DNA of 64,000 bases. It comes from Frankiaceae bacterium. GTDB lineage: Bacteria; Actinomycetota; Actinomycetes; BP-191. Each line of letters starts with the position of its first letter. The stretch's first letter is position 1. A program made the translations under genes and the position numbers. The notes under the pieces are model-generated. The model did not search any database, was not told where the DNA came from, and worked only from the letters and a program-made list of their open reading frames with translations. The stretch covers positions 11,315 through 75,314 of the forward strand of contig DATLNJ010000033.1 in assembly GCA_035536815.1 (NCBI GenBank). Direction: 5' to 3'. Positions 2,082 through 25,175 of the stretch are shown here, in pieces.

Positions 2082-2605
2082 GACTGCGGCTCCAGGTGAC
2101 GCGCCAGCGCGGCCTTGCCGCGGTGCAGGTGGGACTTCACGGCGCCTCGGCTGACGCCCATGGCGGCGGCGATCTCCGCCTCGCTGAGGTCGCCGTAGTA
2201 GCGGAGGACGATCGCCTCCCGCTGCTTGTCCGGCAGCTCGCGCAGCGCCGCGATGACGGCGTCCCGCTCGGCGAGCGTGATGGCGCCGTACTCGGCGCTC
2301 GGCATGTCCGGCATCGGCCGCGGCGCGTGCTTCTCGGCCACCTGCCGGTGCCGCATGCGTGACCGCGCGAGGTTGACGACGGTGGTGCGCAGGTACGGCA
2401 GCGCCTTCTCCGGGTCCTTGATCCGCCCCCACGCGCCGTGCATCCGGATGTAGGCGTCCTGCACGACCTCCTCGCTGGTGCCCACGTCGTCGAGCAGCAG
2501 CGCGGCGAGGCGGACGAGCGACCGGTAGTGCGTCCGGTACAGCTCGACGAGGGGTACCTCGCCGGCCCCGGCGACCGCCTCGCTCCGCGCCATGGTTGCG
2601 ATCAT
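2078..2605 (-). CDS. ECF-type RNA polymerase sigma-70 factor
   Basis: 175 aa. Region 2 (EEVVQDAYIRMHGAW) and region 4 HTH (LPDKQREAIVLRYYGDLSEAEIAAAMGVSRGAVKSHLHRGKAAL). Confidence 0.9.
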   Translation of the reverse strand: MIATMARSEAVAGAGEVPLVELYRTHYRSLVRLAALLLDDVGTSEEVVQDAYIRMHGAWGRIKDPEKALPYLRTTVVNLARSRMRHRQVAEKHAPRPMPDMPSAEYGAITLAERDAVIAALRELPDKQREAIVLRYYGDLSEAEIAAAMGVSRGAVKSHLHRGKAALARHLEPQS

Positions 2606-17975: not shown

Positions 17976-18440
17976 CTACGCCGCCAACTCGCGCAACACG
18001 GCGGCGATCGTTCCGGCGTCCTTGAACGTGAGGCCGAGCGTCGCGACGTGCTTCCACCGCACGACGCCCGCCGCGTCGACGACGAACACCGCGCGGCGCA
18101 GGCCGAGCGGACCCATGACGCCGTACCGGCGGGCCACCGCCTTGTCGGTGTCCGCCAGCAGCGGGAACGTCAGCCCGCGCCGGGCGGCGAACCGCTCGTG
18201 CGACTCGACCCCCTGCGGCGAGATGCCGAGCACGGCCGCGTCCACCTCGTCGAACAGCGCGAGGTCGTCCTGGTACGAGCAGAGCTGCGTCGTGCACACG
18301 GGCGTGTCGTCGCCCGGGTAGAACGCGAGCACCACCGGCCGGCCGCGTAGCTCGGACAGCGCGTACCGCCGCGGCCCGTCCGGCGACGTGCCGTCCAGCA
18401 CGAAGTCGGGGGCCGGGTCGCCGAGGGCCGGTCCGGCCAT
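17976..18440 (-). CDS. bcp: thiol peroxidase / peroxiredoxin (Bcp type)
   Basis: GDPAPDFVL ... [19 protein letters not shown] active-site motif. Confidence 0.9.
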
Positions 18441-18533
18441 GTGGGTGCCTCCAAGTCGTTGTCACGCGGGTCCTGGCAGGGGATACCCTGCTGGTTCGCC
18501 GCCGACCGCCAGCCGGATTGGAACCTGCGCATC

Positions 18534-19916
18534 ATGCCTGCCGACCGCATGGACAACCTCGTCAGCCTCGCCAAGCGCCGCGGGTTCGCGTACCCGGGCT
18601 CGGAGATCTACGGCGGCCTGCGCGCGTCGTGGGACTACGGGCCCCTCGGCGTCGAGCTGAAGAACAACATCAAGCGCCACTGGTGGCGGACGATGGTGCA
18701 GAAGCGCGACGACGTCGTCGGCCTCGACTCCTGCATCATCCTGGCGCCCCAGGTGTGGGAGACCTCAGGTCACGTCACCGGGTTCTCCGACCCGCTGACC
18801 GAGTGCACGTCGTGCCACACGCGGCACCGCGCCGACCAGCTCGAGGAGCAGTACGAGGCCAAGCACGGCCGCCCGCCCGCCAACGGCCTGCGCGACGTCA
18901 ACTGCCCGAACTGCGGCACCAAGGGCCAGTTCACCGAGCCCCGCCAGTTCAACGGGATGATGAAGTCGTTCATCGGCGCCGTCGAGGACTCCTCCGCGCA
19001 GGTGTACCTGCGCCCGGAGACCGCGCAGGGCATCTTCGTGAACTACCTCAACGTCCAGCAGTCGGCGCGCCGCAAGCCACCGTTCGGCATCGCGCAGATC
19101 GGCAAGTCGTTCCGCAACGAGATCACCCCCGGCAACTTCATCTTCCGCACCCGCGAGTTCGAGCAGATGGAGATGGAGTTCTTCGTGCCGCCGGCCGAGG
19201 GCGACCGGTGGTTCGAGTACTGGAAGGCCGAGCGGATCGCGTGGTTCCGCGACCTCGGCATCCGCGAGGAGAACCTGCGCTTCTACGAGCACCCGAAGGA
19301 GAAGCTCGCGCACTACTCGCGCGGGACGTTCGACATCGAGTACCGCTTCGACTTCCCGCGCACCGAGTGGGCCGAGCTGGAGGGCGTCGCGTACCGCGGC
19401 GACTTCGACCTCGCGTCGCACGCGAAGGCGAGCGGCGTCGACCTGTCGTACTTCGACCAGGAGACGAACGAGCGCTACGTGCCGCACGTCGTCGAGCCGG
19501 CGCTCGGCGTGGACCGTACGGCGCTCGTCGTCCTGCTGGACGGCCTCACCGAGGACGAGGCGCCGACCGGCAAGGGCGGCGTCGAGAAGCGCACGCTGCT
19601 GCGCATCGACAAGCGCCTCGCGCCGGTGAAGGTGGCGGTGCTGCCGCTGTCGCGCAACGAGCGGCTGTCCCCGATGGCGAAGGAGCTGGCGCAGACGCTG
19701 CGCGAGCGGTGGAACGTCGACTTCGACGACGCCGGCGCGATCGGCCGCCGCTACCGCAGGCAGGACGAGATCGGCACGCCGTTCTGCGTGACCGTGGACT
19801 TCGAGTCGCTCGACGACAACGCCGTGACCGTCCGCGAGCGGGACACGATGACGCAGGAACGCGTCCCGCTCGCCGAGGTCGAGCGTTACCTGTCCGACCA
19901 GCTGCCGCTCTGCTGA
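18534..19916 (+). CDS. glyQS: glycine--tRNA ligase (alpha2 type)
   Basis: Start [39 protein letters not shown]. Class II motifs. 460 aa. Confidence 0.95.
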
Positions 19917-19941
19917 CGCACCGGGCCGGTCGGGTCAGGGC

Positions 19942-20112
19942 TCAGCAGTAGAGCAGGTCGGTGCCGTAGAGCTCGCGGTACGCGTCGTTCACCGGCCCGC
20001 AGGGCAGGCAGATGTCGGCGACCCACACGCAGACGATCGCCGACGCGGGGACCGGGGCGACCGACACGGTGGCCGCCGCGGTCAGCGCGGCGGCGGCGAG
20101 CAGCCGCCGCAT
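19942..20112 (-). CDS. small secreted 4-Cys peptide, paralog A (56 aa; below ORF-track cutoff)
   Basis: Own translation MRRLLAAAALTAAATVSVAPVPASA|IVCVWVADICLPCGPVNDAYRELYGTDLLYC. Its start overlaps the stop of paralog B (TGATG). Confidence 0.65.
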   Translation of the reverse strand: MRRLLAAAALTAAATVSVAPVPASAIVCVWVADICLPCGPVNDAYRELYGTDLLYC

Positions 20113-20282
20113 CAGGCGCAGGCCAGGTGCTCGCCGGTCGCCGCGTGGTACACGACGTCCGCGGTGAGGCAGACGCTGACACAGATCTTTTTGTACTCGA
20201 CCTCGCAGTGCGTGGCGGACGCGGGCGTGGTCGTCGCGAAGCCGGCCGCGACGAGCGTGGCGGCGAGCAGCAGACGGCGCAT
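20112..20282 (-). CDS. small secreted 4-Cys peptide, paralog B (56 aa; below ORF-track cutoff)
   Basis: Own translation MRRLLLAATLVAAGFATTTPASA|THCEVEYKKICVSVCLTADVVYHAATGEHLACA. GAAGGAG lies 6 nt upstream of the ATG. Confidence 0.65.
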   Translation of the reverse strand: MRRLLLAATLVAAGFATTTPASATHCEVEYKKICVSVCLTADVVYHAATGEHLACA

Positions 20283-20304
20283 GGGGTGCTCCTTCGGGTA
20301 GGGG

Positions 20305-20520
20305 TTACGGGCAGCCGGCCACGCCGGTGCGCGGCCAGGGAGGTAGCGGCCGGTCGGTCATGCCCGACAGCTCGCGGTAACGCCAGGCGACCCAGCCGCA
20401 GTACGTGTGGCAGTTCGGGAACCGGTTGGGGTCGCACGCTTCCGCCGGGGACAGCGGCAGCGAGAGCGAGGCCGTGACTACGGCGGCGGCGGCCAGCCCG
20501 ACGAGGCGACGGGTGCCCAC
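20305..20520 (-). CDS. small secreted 4-Cys peptide, paralog C (71 aa)
   Basis: Signal peptide ...SLPLSPAEA|CDPNRFPNCHTYCGW...GCP. GTG start lies 1 nt after the stop of paralog D. Confidence 0.65.
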   Translation of the reverse strand: MGTRRLVGLAAAAVVTASLSLPLSPAEACDPNRFPNCHTYCGWVAWRYRELSGMTDRPLPPWPRTGVAGCP

Positions 20521-20521
20521 G

Positions 20522-20728
20522 TCAGCAGACCGGCAGCTCGGACCAGTGCGGCAGCAGGATGTCCTGCCGGTACGCCTGGTACCAGACGGTGCGGTACACG
20601 TCCTCGCTGACCGAGCACACGGTCATGCAGTACGGCGGGCGGTTCGGGTCGCACGCCGACGCGGTGGTCGGCGTGAGGAACAGGCCGCCGGCCACTGACA
20701 GGCCGGCGATCGCGATCAGGCGACGCAT
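20522..20728 (-). CDS. small secreted 4-Cys peptide, paralog D (68 aa)
   Basis: MRRLIAIAGLSVAGGLFLTPTTASA|CDPNRPPYCMTVCSVSEDVYRTVWYQAYRQDILLPHWSELPVC. GGAAGGA RBS. Confidence 0.7.
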   Translation of the reverse strand: MRRLIAIAGLSVAGGLFLTPTTASACDPNRPPYCMTVCSVSEDVYRTVWYQAYRQDILLPHWSELPVC

Positions 20729-20781
20729 GGGCGGGTCCTTCCGGTAGGGGCACGGCGCGGTGTCGCGCCGGTCAGAGCGGT

Positions 20782-20820
20782 CGCCTCGCGGGCGCGTGCA
20801 GGGGCAGCGCCCGCGAGGCG
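20782..20820 (-). terminator. GC-rich hairpin (14-bp perfect stem) downstream of paralog E
   Basis: CGCCTCGCGGGCGC-N11-GCGCCCGCGAGGCG, between the stop of E (20849) and the start of D (20728). Confidence 0.45.
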
Positions 20821-20848
20821 GGTCAGCGGCCGGGCGGACCGCCCCTGG

Positions 20849-21046
20849 TCAGAGCGTGCACTCGACGGTCAGCGGTAACGGCGGCAGCTCGCCGCCGAGC
20901 GCCCGGTCGGCGTCGCGGTAGATCGCCGCGGGACAGGTCTCCACGCAGCCCACGCCCTCGACGTACAGGCACTGCGCGGCCGCGGGCGCGACCGGCAGGA
21001 CGGCGACGCCGGCGAGCAGGCCGGCGAGGACGAGCTTCGTACGCAT
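20849..21046 (-). CDS. small secreted 4-Cys peptide, paralog E (65 aa)
   Basis: Internal start of ORF 20849..21583: MRTKLVLAGLLAGVAVLPVAPAAA|QCLYVEGVGCVETCPAAIYRDADRALGGELPPLPLTVECTL. AGAGGAG RBS. Confidence 0.65.
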   Translation of the reverse strand: MRTKLVLAGLLAGVAVLPVAPAAAQCLYVEGVGCVETCPAAIYRDADRALGGELPPLPLTVECTL

Positions 21047-21126
21047 GGTGCTCCTCTGCGGTAGGGGGCGGCCCGGCCCGGGCAGCGCGCGACACGCCGG
21101 GTGCGGGCGACGGGTCGTCGAGCGCT

Positions 21127-21147
21127 CCTTCGGTAGGGGGCCGAAGG
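21127..21147 (-). terminator. short hairpin downstream of paralog F
   Basis: CCTTCGG-TAGGGGG-CCGAAGG, 15 nt after the F stop codon. No U-tract. Confidence 0.3.
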
Positions 21148-21161
21148 GCGGTCGGCGGGCG

Positions 21162-21374
21162 TTACGCCAGGCAGTGGAGGTCGGTGAGCCCGAGGCCGAA
21201 CTTCTCGGCGAGCCGGTCGACGCGGTTGTAGCCGTAGGCGACGGTGTTGCAGGGGCTGCACTGGCCGGTGAGCTCGTAGTACCAGTCGATGCAGACGGCG
21301 TTGGCGGGGGCGGCCGGGCCGAACGACGCGACGAGGGCGGCGCCGGCGGCGGCGAGGGCGAGCTTCTTGCGCAT
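21162..21374 (-). CDS. small secreted 4-Cys peptide, paralog F (70 aa)
   Basis: MRKKLALAAAGAALVASFGPAAPANA|VCIDWYYELTGQCSPCNTVAYGYNRVDRLAEKFGLGLTDLHCLA. AAGGAG RBS. Confidence 0.7.
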   Translation of the reverse strand: MRKKLALAAAGAALVASFGPAAPANAVCIDWYYELTGQCSPCNTVAYGYNRVDRLAEKFGLGLTDLHCLA

Positions 21375-21722
21375 CGCGCTCCTTGAGGGGGTGGTGGTGC
21401 GAAGGAGGTTGCCCGGCAGAGTAGGCCAATCGGCGGCACCTGCCTAGAGAGCGCGGCCACCCTCGTCCGCGGCGAGAACGACGTCAACGGCACGGTCGGC
21501 GTAGCGCGGGACGGCACGAGCTCGCCCTCGCGGCCGGCGGCCCCGCGGCACGGATCCGACCGGCGTACGCGGCGCCGAGGCACTCCGGACCGAGCCGGAG
21601 CGAAACGCTGTGCCCGGCAGCCGGTTGTCTTCTTTGTCCGCTATTGACCTATTTCTCCCCCAGGCCTACCGTCGGGCGCCCTCGGCGCCCCCTACGCGCC
21701 GCTACGCAACAGAGGAACCGCC

Positions 21723-22502: not shown

Positions 22503-25175
22503 GTGCCGAAGTACGTCTACGCCTTCTCGGAAGGCAACAAGGACCTCAAGGACCTGCTCGGCGGAAAGGGCGCGAATCTCGCCGAGATGACGAAGCTCGG
22601 CCTGCCGGTGCCCCCCGGGTTCACGATCACGACCGAGGCCTGCAAGGTCTACCTCAACAGCGGGGCGGAGCCGGCCGAGCTCGCCGCCGAGGTCACGGAG
22701 CACCTGGCCGCGCTCGAGCAGGCGATGGGCCGCGGCCTCGGCGACCCGGAGAACCCGCTCCTCGTCTCGGTCCGGTCGGGAGCGAAGTTCTCGATGCCGG
22801 GGATGATGGACACCGTTCTCAACATCGGCCTCAACGACGAGTCGGTCGACGGGCTCCAGAAGCAGACCGGCAACGAGCGATTCGCGTGGGACTCGTACCG
22901 CCGGCTCGTGCAGATGTTCGGCAAGACCGTGCTGGACGTCGAGGGCGAGCTGTTCGAGCACGAGATCGACCGCATCAAGGCCGACCGCGGCGTCACCAAC
23001 GACCTGGAGCTCGACGCGGGCGACTTGCGGCAGCTCGTCGCGACGTTCAAGGGCATCGTCCGCTCTGCCACAGGGCGTGAGTTCCCCACCGACCCGCGCG
23101 AGCAGATGGACCTCGCGATCCGCGCGGTCTTCGACTCGTGGAACGGCGAGCGCGCCCGCCTGTACCGCCGGCAGGAACGCATCCCGGCCGACCTCGGCAC
23201 GGCGGTCAACGTGCAGACGATGGTGTTCGGCAACCTCGGGATGGACTCCGGCACCGGCGTGGCGTTCACCCGCGACCCCGGCACCGGCGCGACCGGCGTC
23301 TACGGCGACTACCTGGAGAACGCGCAGGGCGAGGACGTCGTCGCGGGCATCCGCAACACCCGCCCGCTGGAGGAGCTGGAGCAGATCGACCCGCCGGCGT
23401 TCCAGGCGCTGATGGCGAACATGACGGCGCTGGAGAACCATTACCGCGACCTGTGCGACATCGAGTTCACCATCGAGCGCAACAAGCTCTGGATGCTCCA
23501 GACGCGGGTCGGGAAGCGCACGGCGGCGGCGGCGTTCATCATCGCCAGCCAGCTCGTGGACGAGGGGATGATCGACCTCGACGAGGCGCTGACCCGGGTG
23601 TCCGGCGCGCAGCTCGCGCAGCTGATGTTCCCGCGCTTCGGGTCGGCTCGGGCGCAGAACCGGATCGGCAAGGGCATGAACGCCTCGCCCGGCGCGGCCG
23701 TCGGCGTCGCGGTGTTCGACTCCGACCGTGCCGAGGAGCGGGCCAAGACCGAGCCGGTCATCCTCGTCCGCCGCGAGACCAACCCCGACGACCTCAACGG
23801 CATGATCGCCGCGCAGGGCATCCTCACCTCGCGCGGCGGCAAGACCTCGCACGCCGCCGTCGTCGCCCGCGGCATGGGCAAGACCTGCGTCTGCGGCGCC
23901 GAGGAGCTGGAGATGGACCTCGAGGGCCGGCGCTTCACCGCGCCCGGCGGCGTCGTCGTCAACGAGGGCGACGTCGTCTCGATCGACGGGACCTCCGGCG
24001 CCGTGTACCTCGGCGAGGTCGAGGTCGTCCCGTCGCCGGTCGTGGAGTACTTCGAGGGCAACCTCGCGCCCGACGCCGACCCGCTCGTCACGGCCGTGCA
24101 CCGGCTGCTCGGGCACGCGGACTCGCTGCGCCGGATGGCGGTGCGCGCCAACGCCGACACGCCGGAGGACGCCGAGCGCGGCCGGCGGTTCGGCGCGCAG
24201 GGCATCGGGCTGTGCCGGACCGAGCACATGTTCCTCGGCGACCGGCGCCAGCTCGTCGAGGACCTGATCCTCGCGGGTGACGACGACGCCGCGCGCGAGG
24301 CTGCGCTACAGGCGCTGCTGCCGATGCAGCGCGAGGACTTCGTCGGCATCTTCGCCGCGATGGACGGGCTGCCGGTGACGGTGCGGCTGCTCGACCCGCC
24401 GTTGCACGAGTTCCTCCCGTCGCTGGAGGAGCTGGCTGTCCGCGTCGCCGTCGGCGACGCCACGGGCCAGGACGTGACGAAGGAGCGCACGCTGCTCGAC
24501 GCCGTACGCCGGCTGCACGAGCAGAACCCGATGCTCGGCCTGCGCGGCGTCCGGCTCGGCCTCGTGATCCCCGGCCTGTTCGCGCTGCAGGTGCGCGCGA
24601 TCGCCGAGGCGGCGAAGATCCGGCGCGAGGCGGGCGGCGACCCGCGGGTCGAGATCATGGTGCCGCTGGTGGGCGCCGTCCAGGAGCTGGAGGTCATCCG
24701 CGAGGAGACCGAACGCGTGCTCGCCGAGGTCGGCGTCTCCGACATGCTGATCGGCACGATGATCGAGGTGCCGCGCGCGGCGCTGACCGCCGGCCAGATC
24801 GCGGAGGCCGCGGACTTCTTCTCGTTCGGCACCAACGACCTCACGCAGATGGGCTGGGGCTTCTCGCGCGACGACGTGGAGGCGGCGTTCTTCTCGCGCT
24901 ACCTCGACCTCGGCATCTTCGGGGTGTCGCCGTTCGAGACCCTCGACCGCGACGGCATCGGCCGGCTGGTACGGATCGCCTGCGAGGAGGGCCGCGCGGT
25001 GAAGCCGGACCTCAAGCTCGGCATCTGCGGCGAGCACGGCGGCGACCCCGACTCCGTCCACTTCTGCCACGAGGTCGGCCTCGACTACGTCTCCTGCTCG
25101 CCGTTCCGCGTGCCGGTCGCGCGGCTGGAGGCCGGGCGGGCGTCGGTCGAGACGAGCGGCAGCGACACGCGGTGA
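22503..25175 (+). CDS. ppdK: pyruvate, phosphate dikinase
   Basis: 890 aa. MPKYVYAFSEGNKDLKDLLGGKGANLAEM. Phospho-His region GGKTSHAAVVARGMGK. PEP-utilising C-terminus FFSFGTNDLTQ. Confidence 0.95.
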   Translation: MPKYVYAFSEGNKDLKDLLGGKGANLAEMTKLGLPVPPGFTITTEACKVYLNSGAEPAELAAEVTEHLAALEQAMGRGLGDPENPLLVSVRSGAKFSMPGMMDTVLNIGLNDESVDGLQKQTGNERFAWDSYRRLVQMFGKTVLDVEGELFEHEIDRIKADRGVTNDLELDAGDLRQLVATFKGIVRSATGREFPTDPREQMDLAIRAVFDSWNGERARLYRRQERIPADLGTAVNVQTMVFGNLGMDSGTGVAFTRDPGTGATGVYGDYLENAQGEDVVAGIRNTRPLEELEQIDPPAFQALMANMTALENHYRDLCDIEFTIERNKLWMLQTRVGKRTAAAAFIIASQLVDEGMIDLDEALTRVSGAQLAQLMFPRFGSARAQNRIGKGMNASPGAAVGVAVFDSDRAEERAKTEPVILVRRETNPDDLNGMIAAQGILTSRGGKTSHAAVVARGMGKTCVCGAEELEMDLEGRRFTAPGGVVVNEGDVVSIDGTSGAVYLGEVEVVPSPVVEYFEGNLAPDADPLVTAVHRLLGHADSLRRMAVRANADTPEDAERGRRFGAQGIGLCRTEHMFLGDRRQLVEDLILAGDDDAAREAALQALLPMQREDFVGIFAAMDGLPVTVRLLDPPLHEFLPSLEELAVRVAVGDATGQDVTKERTLLDAVRRLHEQNPMLGLRGVRLGLVIPGLFALQVRAIAEAAKIRREAGGDPRVEIMVPLVGAVQELEVIREETERVLAEVGVSDMLIGTMIEVPRAALTAGQIAEAADFFSFGTNDLTQMGWGFSRDDVEAAFFSRYLDLGIFGVSPFETLDRDGIGRLVRIACEEGRAVKPDLKLGICGEHGGDPDSVHFCHEVGLDYVSCSPFRVPVARLEAGRASVETSGSDTR

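Follow-up and report, generated by a model that had tools for sequence, protein, structure and literature searches.

Several groups of small secreted proteins invite comparison with the subject of this work, a tandem array of six genes (A to F) for predicted exported four-cysteine peptides, found in a 64-kb stretch of DNA (hereafter the window) from a 78.9-kb contig of a 'Frankiaceae bacterium' metagenome-assembled genome (MAG). Chaplins (PF03777, ChpD-H) are Sec-exported actinobacterial peptides of about 50 amino acids (aa) with conserved cysteines, encoded by multiple paralogues that cluster without export or modification genes. Sec-dependent class II bacteriocins (enterocin P, pediocin-like PF01721) are small and unmodified, with a mature part of 30–45 aa, one or two disulfides and several structural genes lying together. 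Tendamistat-type alpha-amylase inhibitors (PF01356) and the SSI family are stand-alone Sec-secreted actinomycete proteins with four cysteines and no partner genes. Finally, the cysteine-rich repertoires of eukaryotes (plant NCR and defensin-like peptides, cone-snail toxins, ciliate pheromones) combine a signal with a short mature part in which mainly the cysteine framework is conserved, are encoded in tandem multigene arrays evolving by birth and death, and keep the signal better than the mature region.

All these likenesses apply to the array, and each is offset by clear differences. There is no sequence match to chaplins, and the peptides carry four cysteines instead of two, are predicted to be helical and not beta-rich amyloid, are mostly acidic and not strongly hydrophobic, and are found in one uncultured clade at one slot. 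Unlike class II bacteriocins, they have neither YGNGV nor any other signature and no Pfam match, are acidic and not cationic, lack linked immunity or transport genes and occupy a fixed housekeeping site. Compared with tendamistat, the mature peptides are shorter (31–44 vs. 74 aa), with another cysteine spacing, a predicted helix instead of a beta-sandwich and no Pfam match; tendamistat binds amylase via a Trp-Arg-Tyr motif, a triplet that occurs here only in the gene C subtype, inside the predicted helix. From the eukaryotic repertoires they are separated by the lack of homology, their bacterial origin, the spacing C-x(6-14)-C-x(1-4)-C-x(12-33)-C and a predicted single- or two-helix core. The family shows the defining features of none of these four groups. 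Judged from their sequences, the six genes represent an undescribed, lineage-restricted family of exported mini-proteins, and the best reading of the family appears to be that of a birth-and-death set of secreted two-disulfide binding ligands.

Six tandem genes and their relatives

The six genes are arranged head to tail at 19942–21374 of the minus strand (Table 1) and had all been called already as hypothetical proteins (HVF04060–HVF04065) by the Prokaryotic Genome Annotation Pipeline (PGAP). The G+C content at third codon positions (GC3) is 0.90–0.99 in genes A, B, C, D, and F, like that of the flanking glyS (0.985) and ppdK (0.976), and only 0.64–0.80 in the long open reading frames (ORFs) of 183, 244, and 186 aa that overlap them on the same strand, for which a Pfam scan gave no match. 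AAGGAG-type ribosome-binding sites are found upstream of B, E, and F and a weaker one (GGAAGGA) upstream of D. A single nucleotide separates the stop codon of D from the start codon of C (TGAcGTG), and the stop codon of B has one base in common with the start codon of A (TGATG). In six other loci, too, nearly all family genes have a ribosome-binding site or such coupling ahead of them. The original prediction of six tandem genes for small Sec-signal peptides, with the pairs D-C and B-A coupled, is thus borne out by GC3, by the translation signals and by the PGAP calls.

Exactly four cysteines (numbered C1 to C4 in what follows) come after the signal in each of the six, with spacings of 6–10, 2–3, and 16–29 residues and 0–2 residues past the last one. 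The scaffold first proposed for them, C-x(6-10)-C-x(2-3)-C-x(16-29)-C, therefore holds for A to F, as does the motif CDPNR(F/P)P(N/Y)C common to C and D, and a Tyr after the third cysteine is invariant in all six. Of the 693 start-to-stop ORFs of 45–90 aa that the window contains in its six frames, 6 matched a regular expression describing a signal plus the four-cysteine scaffold, and these were exactly A to F, which places the pattern far beyond chance; the family profile, run against all six-frame ORFs of the window, found no seventh copy.

Table 1. Features of the peptide array and of its surroundings, in window positions.
Feature	Coordinates	Strand	Size	Description
Gene F	21162..21374	−	70 aa	HVF04065; first gene of array; signal MRKKLALAAAGAALVASFGPAAPANA, then 44-aa mature peptide VCIDWYYELTGQCSPCNTV...HCLA; GC3 0.986; AAGGAG 7 nt upstream of start; orthologues P0008, P0033, P0036, P0037, P0041
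Gene E	20849..21046	−	65 aa	HVF04064; mature peptide QCLYVEGVGCVETCPAAIYRDADRALGGELPPLPLTVECTL; ATG at 21046, inside longer ORF 20849-21583, preceded by AGAGGAG; orthologues P0024, P0035, P0061
Gene D	20522..20728	−	68 aa	HVF04063; mature peptide CDPNRPPYCMTVC...LPVC; GC3 0.957; relatives P0021 and a copy in L009
Gene C	20305..20520	−	71 aa	HVF04062; GTG start; mature peptide CDPNRFPNCHTYCGWVAWRYRELSGMTDRPLPPWPRTGVAGCP; GC3 0.903
Gene B	20112..20282	−	56 aa	HVF04061; mature peptide THCEVEYKKICVSVCLTADVVYHAATGEHLACA; GC3 0.93; AAGGAG upstream; orthologues P0028, P0031, P0038, P0039
Gene A	19942..20112	−	56 aa	HVF04060; last gene of array; mature peptide IVCVWVADICLPCGPVNDAYRELYGTDLLYC; GC3 0.982; translation coupled to B; orthologues P0027 and a copy in L011
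glyS	18441..19916	+	491 aa	class II glycyl-tRNA synthetase; Pfam tRNA-synt_2b, HGTP_anticodon; convergent with gene A; flanking anchor, not a family member
ppdK	22503..25175	+		pyruvate phosphate dikinase; Pfam PPDK_N, PEP-utilizers, PEP-utilizers_C; other edge of slot, not a family member
Putative array promoter	21418..21447	−		-35-like CTAGGC 21447-21442, 18-nt spacer, -10-like TACTCT 21423-21418
G+C-rich hairpin in E-D spacer	20782..20820	−		stem of ~17 bp
Orphan leader motif in F-E spacer	21107..21148	−		CCCCTACCGAAGGAG, no start codon
3' hairpin of gene A and glyS	19880..19945			stops 25 nt apart
HVF04066	21723..22304	+	193 aa	hypothetical protein, divergent from gene F; Sec-type signal plus seven further Cys
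AhpC/TSA-Redoxin protein	17976..18440	−	154 aa	adjoins glyS

Search homologues together with genes read from fetched loci amounted to 98 distinct relatives, with precursors of 55–88 aa, all of them unnamed, lacking any Pfam or NCBIfam match and from metagenomes or MAGs (source samples include SRR24140720/21, SRR24887269 and JGI 3300062838, 3300066008 and 3300044899); 16 later copies (loci L016 and L017) are additional. Family-wide the scaffold is looser than in the window and reads C-x(6-14)-C-x(1-4)-C-x(12-33)-C-x(0-3)-end, C1 lying 0–2 residues after the predicted cleavage site and C4 0–3 residues from the C-terminus. The C2–C3 spacing is 2 or 3 in 88/98, about half of the family having CxxxC and not CxxC. 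The signal has a median length of 26 aa and the mature part one of 41.5 aa (range 31–54 aa). Exactly four cysteines are present in the mature part of 97/98 sequences. The sole three-cysteine member (P0015, on a 699-bp ENA contig) is a C-subtype orthologue in which Phe replaces C2 (CDPNRFPNF); a sequencing error, decay of this copy or natural variation toward a single disulfide could account for it.

Signal peptides were assigned by a sequence rule (basic n-region, hydrophobic core of 10–16 residues, small residues at −3/−1), under which all six window genes and 98/98 family sequences carry a Sec signal with a signal peptidase I site. These signals consist of a basic n-region of 2–4 residues, an Ala/Leu/Val-rich core and AxA, with at least one Lys or Arg among the first six residues in 95/98 (two or three in 84/98) and ASA at −3 to −1 in 80/98, other AxA forms making up the remainder. 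A twin-arginine translocation signal was considered and rejected, given that RR occurs within the first six residues in only 42/98, that orthologues have RK, KK or TK instead, and that the n-region spans only 2–4 residues with no F-L-K context.

The mature parts are mostly acidic, with a median isoelectric point (pI) of 4.7 and a net charge of zero or below in 89/98 (net positive in 9/98). Their median grand average of hydropathy (GRAVY) is about 0, subtype A being hydrophobic (GRAVY 0.75), and no anchor, transmembrane segment or sortase signal was found after C4. With two disulfides, the monoisotopic masses calculated for the mature peptides of the window are 3471.60 (A), 3558.64 (B), 4957.25 (C), 5127.33 (D), 4330.08 (E), and 4965.30 Da (F), each 4.03 Da below that of the reduced form. 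Several subtypes can be recognised, each with orthologues on several contigs: A (CVWVxDICLPCGPVN), B (THCEVEYKxICVSVCLTAD...TGEHLACA), C (CDPNRFPNCxTYCGWVAWRYRE...LPxWPxTGVAGCP), D (CDPNRPPYCMT), E (QCxxVEGVxCxxTC...LPPLPxTVECTL), and F (CIDWYYELTGQCSPCNTV...NCLA), the last being the commonest in the family, as well as further ones that are not in the window (e.g., NCQPPPVD...RPFECTQ and SCWYITEELDCVSPPC). Subtype C is the most conserved, with 20 invariant positions, many of them aromatic or charged, in an alignment of 19 orthologues. This exceeds the needs of a two-disulfide core and suggests a conserved binding or interaction surface.

Among 5.8 billion proteins, word-indexed profile searches yielded about 60 homologues, again all unnamed and derived from metagenomes or MAGs. 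An exhaustive hmmsearch of 1.84 billion cluster representatives with a profile of the mature region found only 26 at E ≤ 1e-3, all of them proteins of 65–73 aa in which the domain comes directly behind a signal of about 22 residues. The family is therefore small and lineage-restricted, with neither a wider family above it nor members fused to other domains. Scans of the six peptides and of the 193-aa neighbor HVF04066 against Pfam, NCBIfam, and PADLOC gave sub-threshold noise only (DUF3551, DUF7199, AvrLm4-7, SecE; E 0.03–0.1). Even at E ≤ 10 none of the six matches a bacteriocin or chaplin family of Pfam, and the NCBIfam bacteriocin models were likewise negative, so that the expanded family is recognised by none of these curated libraries. 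Scanning of the GTDB species-representative genomes with the C-subtype pattern gave 22 pattern matches, none of them confirmed, and the sole F-subtype pattern match in the GTDB species genomes (L004, a Dehalococcoidia MAG) was discarded as a chance WYYELTGQ within a 336-aa protein. The scan of Joint Genome Institute (JGI) metagenomes with C-subtype patterns gave one confirmed locus (L003), far less than the searches at the protein level. The full-text literature yielded no earlier account of peptides like these or of their host lineage, which is weak evidence of absence because the library is incomplete.

AlphaFold2 was run with family alignments on subtypes C and F. The model of subtype C (mean predicted local distance difference test score, pLDDT, 75.6) has one helix, residues 12–29, from C2 onward, and the model of subtype F (mean pLDDT 77.3) has two, a short one (7–13) between C1 and C2 and a long one (19–35) from C3. 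In this arrangement the main helix has the C2-x(2-4)-C3 motif at its N-terminal end, C1 and C4 coming from the two termini; a Pro often stands immediately ahead of C3. Both models contain, with moderate confidence, the helical core typical of cysteine-stabilised helical mini-proteins. Foldseek searches with the two models gave 0 matches in the PDB and only E ≥ 3 in BFVD. A thioredoxin-like redox CxxC was also considered. The family profile against PDB sequences gives only residues 29–51 of a thioredoxin, at a non-significant E = 0.81, and the idea was dropped because half of the family has CxxxC.

Selection was estimated as the ratio of non-synonymous to synonymous changes (dN/dS; Nei-Gojobori), comparing the window with its closest relative (Logan contigs L009 and L012). 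The pooled value is 0.38, with 0.20 for gene B and 0.18 for the mature part of gene C, indicating purifying selection. Among the six paralogues the mean identity is 45% for the signals and 27% for the mature parts, cysteines included.

One slot, variable copy number

In every locus with visible flanks the family genes are located between glyS and ppdK. The glyS neighbor is present in all loci where its flank is visible and ppdK in all those reaching far enough, within the conserved order era, recO, uppS, glyoxalase, DUF6703, ABM, AhpC/TSA, glyS, the array, ppdK, DUF218, dgt, dnaG. Within this slot the number of copies goes from two (L008) through three (L005/L006 and L013), four (L001, L003, and L017), and the six of the window to nine called plus one uncalled (L011) and twelve (L016). 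The uncalled copy of L011, at 2095–2316 (+), was recognised by the family profile (E = 7.6e-5) and has no gene call in its source; public gene calls probably miss some of the small members. Gene order is partly kept as well, the F-type gene adjoining ppdK and the C, B, and A types, where present, adjoining glyS (window, L009, and L011).

A search with the glycyl-tRNA synthetase (GlyRS) showed MAG relatives of the host at 86–93% identity, with the nearest cultured genera (Thermomonospora, Actinomadura, Cryptosporangium) at 71–73%, and on this sequence evidence the host belongs to a tight uncultured Frankiales-like clade. Family members occupy the slot down to 83% GlyRS identity (L013). In both loci examined below that value the slot has no peptides, one (L014, 81%) containing an unrelated 314-aa gene and the other (L015, 78%) a beta-lactamase-like gene and others. 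The fixed slot, the conserved synteny and the limits of the clade point to an array inherited vertically within a single lineage and reshaped by tandem duplication and loss, and an origin from a mobile element or prophage was rejected in view of the conserved synteny from era-recO-uppS to dgt-dnaG.

Copies outside the slot were looked for over 4–10 kb of flank per locus and over the entire window, and all copies found lie within the slot. In the loci examined no immunity, transporter or ATP-binding cassette (ABC) export, receptor, regulator or modification gene is linked to the array, and besides the peptide genes the slot holds unrelated secreted proteins or nothing, with no small membrane protein. 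Precursors of ribosomally synthesised and post-translationally modified peptides (RiPPs) were rejected as an identity for these genes, considering the N-terminal Sec signal and that no LanB/C/M, radical-SAM, lasso cyclase or peptidase-ABC gene is found within 4–10 kb in any locus.

Candidate roles of the peptides

Putting these observations together, each gene is translatable, either from a Shine-Dalgarno site of its own or through stop/start coupling, and the peptide would be exported unfolded by Sec and cut after AxA by signal peptidase I. An extracytoplasmic MdbA/DsbA plus VKOR system, a type of oxidative folding of exported proteins that is established in Actinobacteria (PMC9974433, PMC12421883), would then form two disulfides, which may fasten both the N-terminal segment and the C-terminal tail to the central helix. 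The outcome would be a compact, protease-resistant, mostly acidic and soluble peptide, each paralogue type binding an extracellular target of its own. The arrays of 2–12 paralogues expand and contract by duplication and loss in the glyS-ppdK slot. A role as diffusible ligands of the recognition, signalling or inhibitor type is plausible, although we favor it only tentatively. It ranks ahead of antimicrobials, and these ahead of surface peptides, because the peptides are acidic, immunity and export genes are missing, the context is housekeeping-like and several subtypes are strongly conserved. A soluble ligand seems preferable to a lytic peptide given the median pI, the lack of an anchor past C4 and the conserved surface of subtype C.

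Several observations weigh against this view. The structural models are only moderately confident, the disulfides are predicted, and the Sec signals were assigned by sequence rules. C1 follows AxA directly (A-S-A-C) in subtypes C and D and in 24/98 sequences overall, an arrangement that suits permissive lipobox patterns, though without Leu/Val/Ile at −3, so that C and D members could be lipid-anchored instead of free; a lipobox is not a family feature because C1 is at +2 or +3 in 74/98. Classical Gram-positive pheromone cassettes carry linked receptor or kinase genes, and no receptor, kinase or target gene is linked to the array in the loci examined. Lastly, the mature parts of genes A and D have dN/dS values of 1.28 and 0.98, from 12 to about 18 non-synonymous changes, both signals being conserved. 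These rates, which are only suggestive, fit an arms race (antagonism) at least as well as signalling. The fast evolution of A and D and the missing receptor keep a reading based on antagonism alive.

The most serious competitor is that of Sec-dependent bacteriocins or other antimicrobials, a disulfide-stabilised toxin arsenal directed against bacteria, fungi or protists and diversified by arms-race duplication, which we consider somewhat unlikely. Small, secreted, disulfide-type products of multi-copy genes, varying from 2 to 12 copies between close relatives, are what such an arsenal should look like. So are a signal that is better kept than the mature part and the dN/dS of about 1.0–1.3 in A and D, which resembles the evolution of toxin families, and an immunity gene would not be needed if the targets were outside the phylum of the producer. 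However, membrane-active bacteriocins are typically cationic and only nine of the 98 mature parts have a net positive charge. There is no Pfam bacteriocin match even at E ≤ 10, nor any immunity-like small membrane protein, ABC exporter or regulator in the loci examined; purifying selection acts clearly on subtypes B and C (dN/dS of about 0.2), and the locus, fixed among housekeeping genes in conserved order, looks vertically inherited and not strain-variable or mobile. The acidic mature peptides and the lack of a linked immunity, transporter, receptor or modification gene argue against a classical bacteriocin or RiPP. The interpretation given in the original prediction stands in part, since a secreted four-cysteine family is supported and the signalling or anti-competitor roles suggested for it are possible, and the acidic peptides, the missing linked genes and the fixed, apparently vertically inherited locus lean against a bacteriocin-like character in the classical sense.

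Improbable, in our view, are cell-surface or structural peptides, chaplin-like or otherwise envelope-associated (with C and D as small lipoproteins), that would serve the envelope, hyphae or spores of the producer. The multi-paralogue organisation recalls Streptomyces chaplins, the array sits amid housekeeping genes behind a conserved sigma-70-like promoter block, the ASAC of C and D would suit lipidation, and subtype A is hydrophobic. Against these points, the peptides match neither the chaplin domain nor any other Pfam family, have four cysteines and not two, and are predicted as helices and not as beta or amyloid structures; with a median GRAVY near zero most members look acidic and soluble, lipidation is no rule of the family, and both copy number and subtype content are too variable for a core structural function. 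The chance that the small ORFs are an annotation artefact, shadow frames of longer genes or non-coding G+C-rich sequence, is negligible, because the long same-strand ORFs across the region, usual at 72% G+C, have the GC3 of shadow frames and no Pfam match, whereas the small genes have about 100 homologues that keep reading frame, signal and four cysteines, an overall dN/dS below 1 and ribosome-binding sites.

Returning to binding ligands, a bolder and rather doubtful extension would see in the array a bacterial counterpart of the eukaryotic cysteine-rich repertoires, in which 2–12 secreted two-disulfide ligands, rapidly reshuffled, would make up a combinatorial extracellular 'code' that this uncultured soil lineage uses for kin recognition, developmental signalling or the manipulation of other organisms, with receptors encoded elsewhere in the genome.

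Transcription signals, neighboring genes and significance

A promoter-like block lies about 45–70 nt upstream of the first gene and is kept in 5/6 aligned loci, with TTGACG or CTAGGC, a spacer of 18–19 nt and TACTCT. From its conservation only, it looks like a housekeeping-type promoter; a scan with simple promoter and terminator consensus sequences called neither a sigma-70-like site nor a terminator on the strand of the array. The 120-nt spacer between E and D folds with −75.4 kcal/mol (z = −5.4; 0/200 shuffles as stable), and the sequence and pairing of its hairpin are kept in the closest relative (L012), where one A-to-G change leads to a G-U pair. This hairpin probably serves termination, attenuation or RNA stability, splitting the array into transcription units. 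Taken with the promoter block, it suggests that the array is probably read as the units F, E, D-C, and B-A or as an attenuated operon.

Two more elements were observed at the array. The orphan leader motif CCCCTACCGAAGGAG of the F-E spacer, which also precedes B, D, and E, pairs with the upstream CCCTTCGG in a hairpin directly past the stop codon of F, and could be what is left of a former gene copy, or else resemble a terminator in function; the folding of the whole F-E spacer is not unusual (z = −1.2). At the other end, gene A and the convergent glyS share a 3' hairpin (−33.6 kcal/mol, z = −2.85) that is possibly a bidirectional terminator.

Among the neighbors, the 193-aa HVF04066 has no match in Pfam, NCBIfam or PADLOC. 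A near-identical copy (P0010) is present on a 4.2-kb ENA contig, possibly the same as the 4191-bp ENA contig that carries the B-type P0038. Other slots contain a 241-aa secreted protein (L011), an APH-type kinase (L017) or the 314-aa gene of L014, and the dissimilarity of the 193-aa window protein and the 241-aa one of L011 indicates that neither is a conserved partner of the array. The AhpC/TSA-Redoxin protein next to glyS, probably a cytoplasmic Bcp-type peroxiredoxin, is kept in most related loci and not called in L015. As listed, from the GTG at 18441, the glyS ORF exceeds its homologues (455–462 aa) by about 30 residues, and the true start is probably near 18537–18552.

What we describe is a new, narrow family within a known kind, the secreted cysteine-stabilised mini-proteins, and involves no new principle. 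What sets it apart is that it has expanded in tandem to 2–12 copies at a single fixed site and is confined to an uncultured lineage. Small secreted proteins of bacteria are under-annotated, and repertoires of unmodified ribosomal disulfide-rich peptides, well known in plants, animals, and fungi, have rarely been described in bacteria. With about 100 members, a fixed slot and 2–12 copies in close relatives, the family offers a clean case for studying the birth and death of such a repertoire. Since the window peptides are short enough to be synthesised (31–44 aa), their activity, targets, and disulfide topology can be tested despite the uncultured host, and if they prove to be signals, inhibitors or antimicrobials they would represent a new compact, disulfide-stapled helical scaffold.

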